Of a stretch of 64,000 bases of DNA, positions 17,031 to 17,813 are shown piece by piece (within the stretch, counting starts at the first letter, position 1; each line of letters opens with the position of its first letter). Made by a program: the position numbers and the translations under genes. Location: assembly GCA_965208325.1 (NCBI GenBank), contig OZ242326.1, positions 2,336,001 to 2,400,000 on the forward strand. The letters are read 5' to 3'. Source of the DNA: Candidatus Poribacteria bacterium. GTDB lineage: Bacteria; Poribacteria; WGA-4E; PCPOR2b. A model generated the notes under the pieces. That model was not told the DNA's origin and did not search any database. It saw nothing but the letters and a program-made list of their open reading frames with translations.

Positions 17031-17813
17031 TTATTTCCTGAGTTTCTTGAGATTGAACGGTATACCCGTATAATTCCTATGAAAGTACTTCGGATCTAAG
17101 TCCTTGTGGTATGTTTCAGCTAATCGATCATAATTGGGTGCATCATTTTTTGGATCGGCTGTCGCTCCCTGAGTGTTTAGCAATCTCGCAATCTGGTCAC
17201 CCAGCGATAAATCGCTACTCTGATCATAATTGTAAGCACCAAAGGAAGCATCTGCATCATTACTCGGCAGATCTTCATAACTAAATCCACTTGGATCGCC
17301 GTCTAGTAACTGCTGCACTTCCACAGCATAACCCAAATCGTAGGCGTGTTCATACGCATGGAATTTGCTCATATATTTCTGTCTGTAATCGGCAGCGACT
17401 GCCGCGGCAGCCATAAAATGTTTCATATCTATCCAACCGTATTTCTGTGTAAAGATATATCTTTTTTTCTCGGTGTGAACTCCTATGTTACCTCCAGGTT
17501 CGCTGTTGCTGCTTGCTGTGTTTCTAGGATTGAAATCCGATAATACAGGCGATTTGTTGTTAAGGTTGTTGAGTTCATCAACAAAATCGGTTACCGTAGC
17601 CACTTAATCTTTTACAGGTACTTCGCCGGTTGGATTCGTATACTTCAGCGGATTATTATTCGCATACACATACCAGTTGATGCCGTCTCCGGCGGGGTCA
17701 CGCTGTAAAAAGTGTCCGGCGTGGGGGTGGTAGTAGGCTTCTAAAGCGGGTGCAGCGATAAGGGTCAGCAGCAGTATTGCAAGGGTAAATCTAAAAACTG
17801 TGTTCATAGTCAT
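17031..17813 (-). pseudogene. Mini-RHS: signal peptide + RHS core C-terminal plug + cargo domain, interrupted by in-frame TAA (17604-17606)
   Basis: ORFs 17604-17813 and 17031-17603 abut in the same frame. Signal peptide ...LIAAPALEA is followed directly by YYHPHAGHFLQRDPAGDGINWYVYANNNPLKYTNPTG. Cargo has GWIDMKHF and SGFSYEDLPSN. Confidence 0.8.

Follow-up and report, generated by a model that had tools for sequence, protein, structure and literature searches.

A nonsense codon in a probable member of a conserved, shell-less 'mini-RHS' toxin family of Candidatus Poribacteria

As RHS toxins are understood, the cargo is sealed within a shell of YD repeats and is freed by a protease motif built into that shell. 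What, then, is to be made of a gene in which a signal peptide runs straight into the end of the RHS core, with no shell in between, and in which a stop codon parts this short fusion from the cargo that follows? The question is raised by a locus in the window, the 64,000-nucleotide stretch of a Candidatus Poribacteria contig that was analysed here. We consider it probable that these sponge symbionts possess a conserved family of polymorphic toxins without a shell, here called 'mini-RHS', and that a nonsense codon has inactivated the member at this locus.

All parts of the locus lie on the minus strand. ORF A (17604..17813) encodes 69 amino acids, beginning with a putative Sec-type signal peptide, MTMNTVFRFTLAILLLTLIAAPALEA (codons 1-26; 17736..17813), which shows a basic n-region followed by a hydrophobic core and has Ala at position -1. 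It continues with 37 residues from the end of the RHS core, YYHPHAGHFLQRDPAGDGINWYVYANNNPLKYTNPTG (codons 27-63; 17625..17735), hereafter the tail, and closes with the first six cargo codons, EVPVKD (17607..17624), which align with [KE][VE]PV[KQ]D of intact relatives. Codon 70 is an in-frame TAA (17604..17606). Directly 3' of it, in the frame of ORF A, lies a 190-aa cargo frame whose first codon is GTG (17031..17603), related to DUF4056 and CapCone/Lipocone-like, its signal peptide now severed. The start codon of ORF A overlaps, as ATGA, the TGA of the upstream gene (17810..18964, minus strand), which codes for a 384-aa HEAT protein with a signal peptide and a beta-rich C-terminus. An earlier note, made from the letters of this DNA, had described the same order of signal peptide, RHS core end, TAA and 190-aa cargo together with the ATGA overlap, and it was correct on every point that we checked.

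Residues 27-63 match the Rhs_assc_core model TIGR03696 (42.1 bits against a cut-off of 32.5) over model positions 37-75/76. The close resemblance to the core end of the large RHS protein, likewise pointed out in the note, amounts to 25 identities in 37 residues (residues 1423-1459 of the latter). This comparison protein (26358..31277, minus strand) is a full-length RHS of 1639 aa with a signal peptide, DUF6531, RHS repeats, Laminin_G_3, a complete Rhs_assc_core and an HExxH-type tip. The YD/RHS repeat models PF05593 and TIGR01643, both of which match the large RHS, have no match in the 69-aa or the 190-aa product, and only 37 residues separate the signal peptide from the cargo. Within the tail, R38-D39-P40 is present and the second motif is degenerate (N60-P-T-G-E): as the note had remarked, Asn replaces the second Asp of DPxG, an Asp that the six remaining mini copies in the alignment retain, and an intact DPxG[LWF] motif with both Asp residues is absent from the window's copy. 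Scanning positions 15600-21400 for promoters and terminators gave counts at the level of shuffled sequence, and the sequencing runs listed for this DNA include no RNA run.

A stop codon one base away from CAA invites the suspicion of an assembly or sequencing error in a gene that is intact in the organism, and the note had advised that the TAA be checked. Contigs of four public runs, derived from sponge metagenomes, were aligned over positions 16900-17900. In three of the four runs, from three studies, they carry the same TAA at 17604-17606 with no alternative letter; the contig of the fourth run ends at 17592, and one of the three TAA runs may be the source sample. Furthermore, the exact 69-aa product is recorded on three contigs, and a 67-aa form is recorded together with a 158-aa form of the cargo on another contig of 21,153 nt. 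In the face of these records an error is hardly credible. The TAA is also the codon that terminates the 190-aa frame, and it is therefore an ordinary stop in the source organism. In an alignment of 15 relatives, the stop position is occupied by Q, E or H within the motif PV[KQ]D[QEH]AGT, and two full-length RHS genes with the same cargo have CAA there. Given the CAA of these relatives and the TAA in three studies, a single C-to-T nonsense change accounts for the stop, and this change at codon 70 is fixed across the sampled populations.

Since the TAA splits the export signal from the cargo, no exported toxin should be made, and the window's copy is, to judge from its sequence, a toxin pseudogene that has retained its candidate immunity gene. 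The earlier suggestion of an exported cargo cassette thus stands for the architecture, which is conserved and has intact homologues (see below), and falls for the window's copy, cut by the fixed nonsense codon. One could envision instead that the split is functional, the 5' part yielding an exported RHS-tail peptide of 43 aa and the cargo being made in the cytoplasm by re-initiation at the GTG. The stability of the TAA across three studies, the position of the GTG directly after it and the fact that the cargo keeps every residue that is invariant in the family would all suit such an arrangement. We nonetheless regard it as very improbable: the intact orthologue and all other members of the family are single frames, no comparable split form of different sequence was found, and a lipoprotein immunity candidate could not meet a cytoplasmic cargo. 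The D-to-N change in the tail speaks against it as well, as does a deletion carried by one population. The latter is an in-frame polymorphism of 96 nt (17126..17221, minus strand) that removes the 32 codons between two NYD repeats of the cargo. It appears as a contig joint from 17125 to 17222 in one run, and the 158-aa protein P0002 has the same 32-codon gap. Five variants in one population comprise three non-synonymous and two synonymous changes, too few to judge selection. As a probable pseudogene, the window's copy would represent the usual end state of such genes, with the toxin lost and the immunity kept.

Had no intact homologues of this architecture existed, the signal peptide could have been a one-off deletion junction with a neighbouring gene, as the earlier note itself allowed; intact copies are found in three genomes. 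The window's own genome is a single contig of 4.71 Mb in which the TIGR03696 profile finds seven places. Four are frames of 1644-1717 aa that cover model positions 1-75/76, and the other three, in frames of 126, 282 and 308 aa, begin at model position 37. Two intact paralogues in this genome, one of them 276 aa long, begin MTMNTVKRFTLL, pass straight into YYDPH...DPTG and end in an HExxH-type tip; about 30 nt on the 5' side of the ATG are also conserved among the paralogues. Among 176 genomes of the phylum, signal peptide plus tail (profile positions 1-63/64) were matched seven times in three genomes, and a search of 41 related genomes returned the same seven: three in the window's own genome, three in the sister species, including an intact orthologue of 266 aa, and one in another genus. 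When the leader-plus-tail profile was run against 1.84 billion cluster representatives, 47,051 matches were obtained at E<=0.001, nearly all of them ordinary RHS core ends; the leader is fused directly to the tail in 15 of the best 150 representatives.

Intact members measure 250-280 aa. A putative Sec signal peptide leads directly into the final 37 residues of the RHS core, with YYDP at the start, NNP within and DPxG at the end, and a variable C-terminal toxin follows. At least six unlike tips occur among the genomic copies and the 15 representatives, namely the window's cargo, three or four HExxH-type domains and hydrophobic tips. The leader is conserved in all seven genomic copies. Its most hydrophobic 12-aa stretch averages about 2.3-3.1 on the Kyte-Doolittle scale in relatives of the same build, and in relatives from the second genus YYDP is preceded by a classic A-Q-A. 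Derivation of the leader from that of full-length RHS proteins by internal deletion was considered and rejected, the two leaders being unlike by eye. Going by their sequences, mini-RHS genes are most aptly regarded as RHS polymorphic toxins of a Sec-led type that has no shell.

Could these genes still be ordinary silent orphan RHS-CT cassettes, with an unused hydrophobic N-terminus and no role other than that of recombination donors? The orphan rhs-CT or 'short Rhs' modules of Enterobacteria and of T6SS-linked Rhs loci (10.1101/2024.02.26.582050) likewise combine a toxin tip and an immunity gene with a piece of the core only. They lie near or after full-length RHS genes and exchange tips by recombination at the core end, and that source interprets short partial RHS proteins as orphans. 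The window's locus agrees with them in having a tip, an immunity candidate and a core remnant in the absence of the delivery part, and the sister species' orthologue sits in an orphan position, after a full-length RHS and an immunity-like gene. However, such orphans lack an export signal and in most cases a start codon as well. Mini-RHS genes begin with an ATG of their own, which often overlaps the stop of the gene before it, and their Sec-type leader is fused, always at the same residue, to a tail of 37 aa, in two genera and with several cargo types. The leader has kept its basic n-region, hydrophobic core and Ala at -1 across these two genera, and all neighbouring immunity candidates have signal peptides or lipoboxes. 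Moreover, classical orphans in the same bacterial family retain a longer core piece and lack the leader. A purely donor role is, for these reasons, quite improbable. Fusion of a signal peptide to an RHS tail without repeats appears to be undescribed; a literature search that included the available portions of PMC3482391 and 10.1101/2024.02.26.582050 found no description of it.

Comparison with the sister species bears directly on how such genes change. Window positions 17626..18939 are 98.7% identical to the sister species' locus, and the sequences are unrelated beyond. The intact orthologue at that locus has the same leader and stem, with an HExxH tip instead of the window's cargo. Identity holds at the level of single bases through codon 48 (..INWY) and gives way to divergence after it, placing the breakpoint after Y48, inside the tail. 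In a second orthologous pair, the upstream DNA and the leader differ very little, mismatches become more frequent in the course of the tail, and the two cargos show no relationship. A metagenomic sequence, P0012, joins the stem of the window's copy to a different tip again and represents a third allele. Cargo has been replaced between the sister species, and the breakpoint lies inside the RHS tail.

Tips of mini-RHS proteins are also found on full-length RHS proteins, so that mini and full-length genes must draw on one cassette pool, with exchange at the tail. Within the window's own genome, the tails of the two kinds of gene share 68-84% nucleotide identity and exact runs of 11-38 nt. These runs are therefore short recombination substrates, enough for occasional recombination. 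From this set of sequences we infer that the mini-RHS family consists of polymorphic toxins in which the tail is the recombination junction. Directly before the mini-RHS gene of the second orthologous pair, with overlapping stop and start, lies in both sister species a gene for a secreted Transglut_core2 protein of 281-290 aa (L003 5944..6816; L005 4118..4990). A homologue of this gene is located directly upstream of a full-length RHS in the sister species, G002 (L004 6906..7751).

Whether the tail also does something in the protein is less straightforward. Among mini copies, dN/dS over tail codons 27-63 is 0.08-0.41 (dS 0.19-1.0), and pN/pS in the resident half, codons 27-48, is 0.09-0.50. 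The low tail dN/dS may partly mirror selection in full-length donors, a possibility that arises because the last 15 tail codons travel with the cargo; it also fits a function at the protein level, for example self-cleavage. The tail could accordingly be a working element, either a self-cleaving module (R-D-P, D-P-x-G) or a device that docks to a full-length shell for processing or loading in trans, the latter being the idea put forward in the note. Besides the constraint in the resident half, this proposal can draw on the presence of R-D-P in all seven aligned copies and on that of the second Asp in every copy except the window's (the metagenomic fragment P0032 also has DSTG), as well as on the junction with the signal peptide, which falls at the same residue in two genera. 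Against it stands the AlphaFold2 model of an intact relative, in which tail residues 21-61 have pLDDT values below 50 and make no contact with the confidently modelled cargo. In solved RHS proteins, moreover, the cleavage site lies inside the shell, according to 10.1101/2024.02.26.582050.

Further evidence against a working tail comes from proteins that carry the same DUF4056-type cargo behind signal peptides and differently cut tails, starting at model positions 3, 13, 15/16 and 42; in P0203 the tail comprises model positions 57-75 only and the first Asp motif is missing. We therefore find a working tail distinctly unlikely, and we favour, from model and sequence together, the reading in which the tail would act as a recombination handle and a linker over one in which it cleaves itself. 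A related idea is that the last 37 core residues are autonomous in the absence of the shell, as a minimal Asp-Asp self-cleaving release peptide or as a tag addressing full-length and mini-RHS toxins alike to a secretin-type outer-membrane exporter, for instance the one encoded next to the three-RHS cluster of the window's own genome. It is an unlikely one; if it were true, Poribacteria would possess a two-tier RHS arsenal, encapsulated and naked, supplied from one cassette pool. In the metagenomic proteins P0186, P0203, P0176, P0192, P0243 and P0244, the same DUF4056-type cargo and a signal peptide occur with another style of tail (..SPDPL..), the cargo following the signal peptide directly in some and after a domain of about 60 aa in others. 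The occurrence of such cargo with this tail suggests that capture of RHS cassettes by signal peptides has taken place in more than one lineage.

What the lost toxin would have done depends on the identity of its cargo, which the note had tentatively compared to DUF4056. Pfam and NCBIfam scans assigned the window's cargo to no family, with nothing above the Pfam gathering threshold. The comparison was borne out by a cargo-only profile, which gave 173 matches at E<=0.01: among the 120 listed, eight contain PF13265 (DUF4056), with E values of 1e-36 to 1e-42, and the name RHS repeat-associated is attached to many. Of 15 cargo relatives, seven have weak direct matches to DUF4056 (best E 0.012) and four to DUF2279; P0034 scores 17.4 bits against PF13265, below the threshold of 23.6. 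According to PMC12419801, the CapCone clade is recognised by a Gly six residues before the His of helix 2, an S/GxxSxx motif before the Asp of helix 4 and a beta-hairpin clasp. The cargo presents all the CapCone features given there: G56 and H62, S105-G-F-S108-Y-E-D111, of which S105 and S108 to D111 are invariant in 15 sequences, and, in a structural model (pLDDT 72, pTM 0.71), strands at 49-52 and 56-59 followed by a helix at 60-77.

The four-helix Lipocone fold was looked for by structure comparison. Foldseek against the PDB found no match to the cargo model at E<=0.001. In a wide VIA-align search the best Z was 4.5, not above background for helical models, and a chain of a WNT8A complex, 7kc4_D, scored a Z of 3.9. 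The profile search of the PDB returned RHS/Tc core ends only, because the alignment used included the tail. The nearest named clusters in the ESM Atlas, YkzU (0.91) and SAA (0.88), serve as leads only. Judged by its profile matches and motifs, the cargo can be classed as DUF4056-related and as a member of the CapCone clade of the Lipocone superfamily. Lipocone toxins have been proposed to act on the head groups of lipid-linked envelope precursors (PMC12419801), and the cargo is predicted to cut such head groups.

The gene that follows the cargo is an attractive candidate for its immunity partner. It encodes an intact 334-aa HEAT-repeat lipoprotein (…LILMGC…; 16012..17016, minus strand; Pfam HEAT_2, 107.6 bits). 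A full-length RHS with the same cargo is followed by a gene to which it shows 68% identity, and behind a third RHS with this cargo lies another homologue. Thus, in all three contexts seen, a cargo of the window's type is followed by a HEAT lipoprotein. More generally, each of the seven genomic mini copies is followed by a signal-peptide or lipoprotein gene, with HEAT repeats in six. HEAT-repeat immunity proteins are known as Imm-HEAT (PMC3482391), and both the HEAT_2 score and the position directly after a toxin type agree with that class. The available text of PMC12419801 describes the immunity proteins of Lipocone systems as membrane proteins or lipoproteins and gives five other folds for them, HEAT not among these. 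On such sequence evidence, the lipoprotein is likely to be the immunity protein of the cargo.

HEAT genes with signal peptides form a run at 17810..21114 (minus strand; 384, 277 and 436 aa), and a 79-aa fragment of such a protein lies at 15736..15975 on the same strand. The 384-aa gene matches genes that elsewhere follow a different cargo, MYIVLPGG...HEFSH; the run consequently looks like a stockpile of orphan immunity genes.

Taken together, these elements suggest a simple scheme. The signal peptide would send a mini-RHS protein through Sec into the periplasm. Its tail would be mainly a homology junction by which the toxin-plus-immunity cassettes of full-length RHS genes are captured and, in the protein itself, a flexible linker. 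The toxin would then act on the periplasmic face, where in the producer it would be neutralised by the lipoprotein immunity protein, and a later step, possibly involving a secretin, would move it out of the cell. In the window's copy, the change of CAA to TAA at codon 70 would have left the immunity gene with no exported toxin to counter.

A possible exit is encoded outside the window, at G000:C1:3654685-3660605 (L036 8685..14605), by genes for a secretin (815 aa), a PilN-like protein, a weakly T2SS-C-like protein and an unknown protein of 400 aa. The set is tightly packed on one strand, directly upstream of a cluster of three RHS genes in the window's own genome, and it might provide Sec-exported RHS toxins with an outer-membrane exit of their own. 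No gene for a T6SS sheath (TssC/VipB) was found in this genome, in agreement with Sec-dependent RHS proteins.

These properties inspire comparisons with other toxins. Sec-dependent polymorphic toxins such as the MafB proteins of Neisseria (Table 1 of PMC3482391) also join a signal peptide and a short conserved N-terminal module to a variable C-terminal toxin, with a downstream immunity gene and spare cassettes. In mini-RHS, the place of DUF1020 as the conserved module is taken by the C-terminal end of the RHS core, which the full-length RHS proteins encoded in the same genome also contain. Stand-alone secreted Lipocone toxins such as CapCone-2 and Min-Wnt are described in PMC12419801 as two-gene systems in which a signal peptide or lipobox is joined to the toxin by a poorly structured linker and the immunity protein is a membrane protein or lipoprotein. 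Together with the short partial Rhs proteins interpreted as orphans, they are the nearest published relatives that we found, and mini-RHS shares with them the signal peptide, the disordered linker, the Lipocone-type domain and a lipoprotein as immunity partner. By analogy, intact members with the window's type of cargo probably work as these toxins do. What sets mini-RHS apart is a linker that can be recognised as an RHS tail and serves at the same time as the junction for swaps. Finally, full-length Sec-exported RHS/YD toxins such as WapA share with mini-RHS the N-terminal signal peptide, the core-end motif before the tip and the cognate immunity gene, and differ in having a YD-repeat shell between signal peptide and core end.

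Mini-RHS genes, then, have dispensed with the shell and kept the motif, the swappable tip and the immunity gene behind a plain signal peptide, an indication that RHS cassettes lend themselves to reuse as simple secreted toxins. Such proteins would widen the known delivery contexts of Lipocone/DUF4056 toxins and bear on competition among uncultured sponge symbionts. They also offer a natural minimal construct for asking if the DPxG motif acts without a shell.

Three features of the surrounding DNA deserve mention. Just upstream of the large RHS lies a gene for a 408-aa protein that belongs to no Pfam family (31376..32602, minus strand). It is 57% identical to the 400-aa unknown protein preceding the other RHS cluster, so that the two appear to represent a conserved RHS-associated accessory gene. 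In the large RHS itself, the concanavalin-like Laminin_G_3 domain is inserted shortly before the core end, as in the other full-length RHS proteins of the group. Lastly, an IS-type transposase in two overlapping frames of 121 and 156 aa (21839..22608, plus strand) lies between the HEAT genes and a Big_5-like lipoprotein array (21130..25217), and may explain why the gene order is rearranged relative to the sister species.
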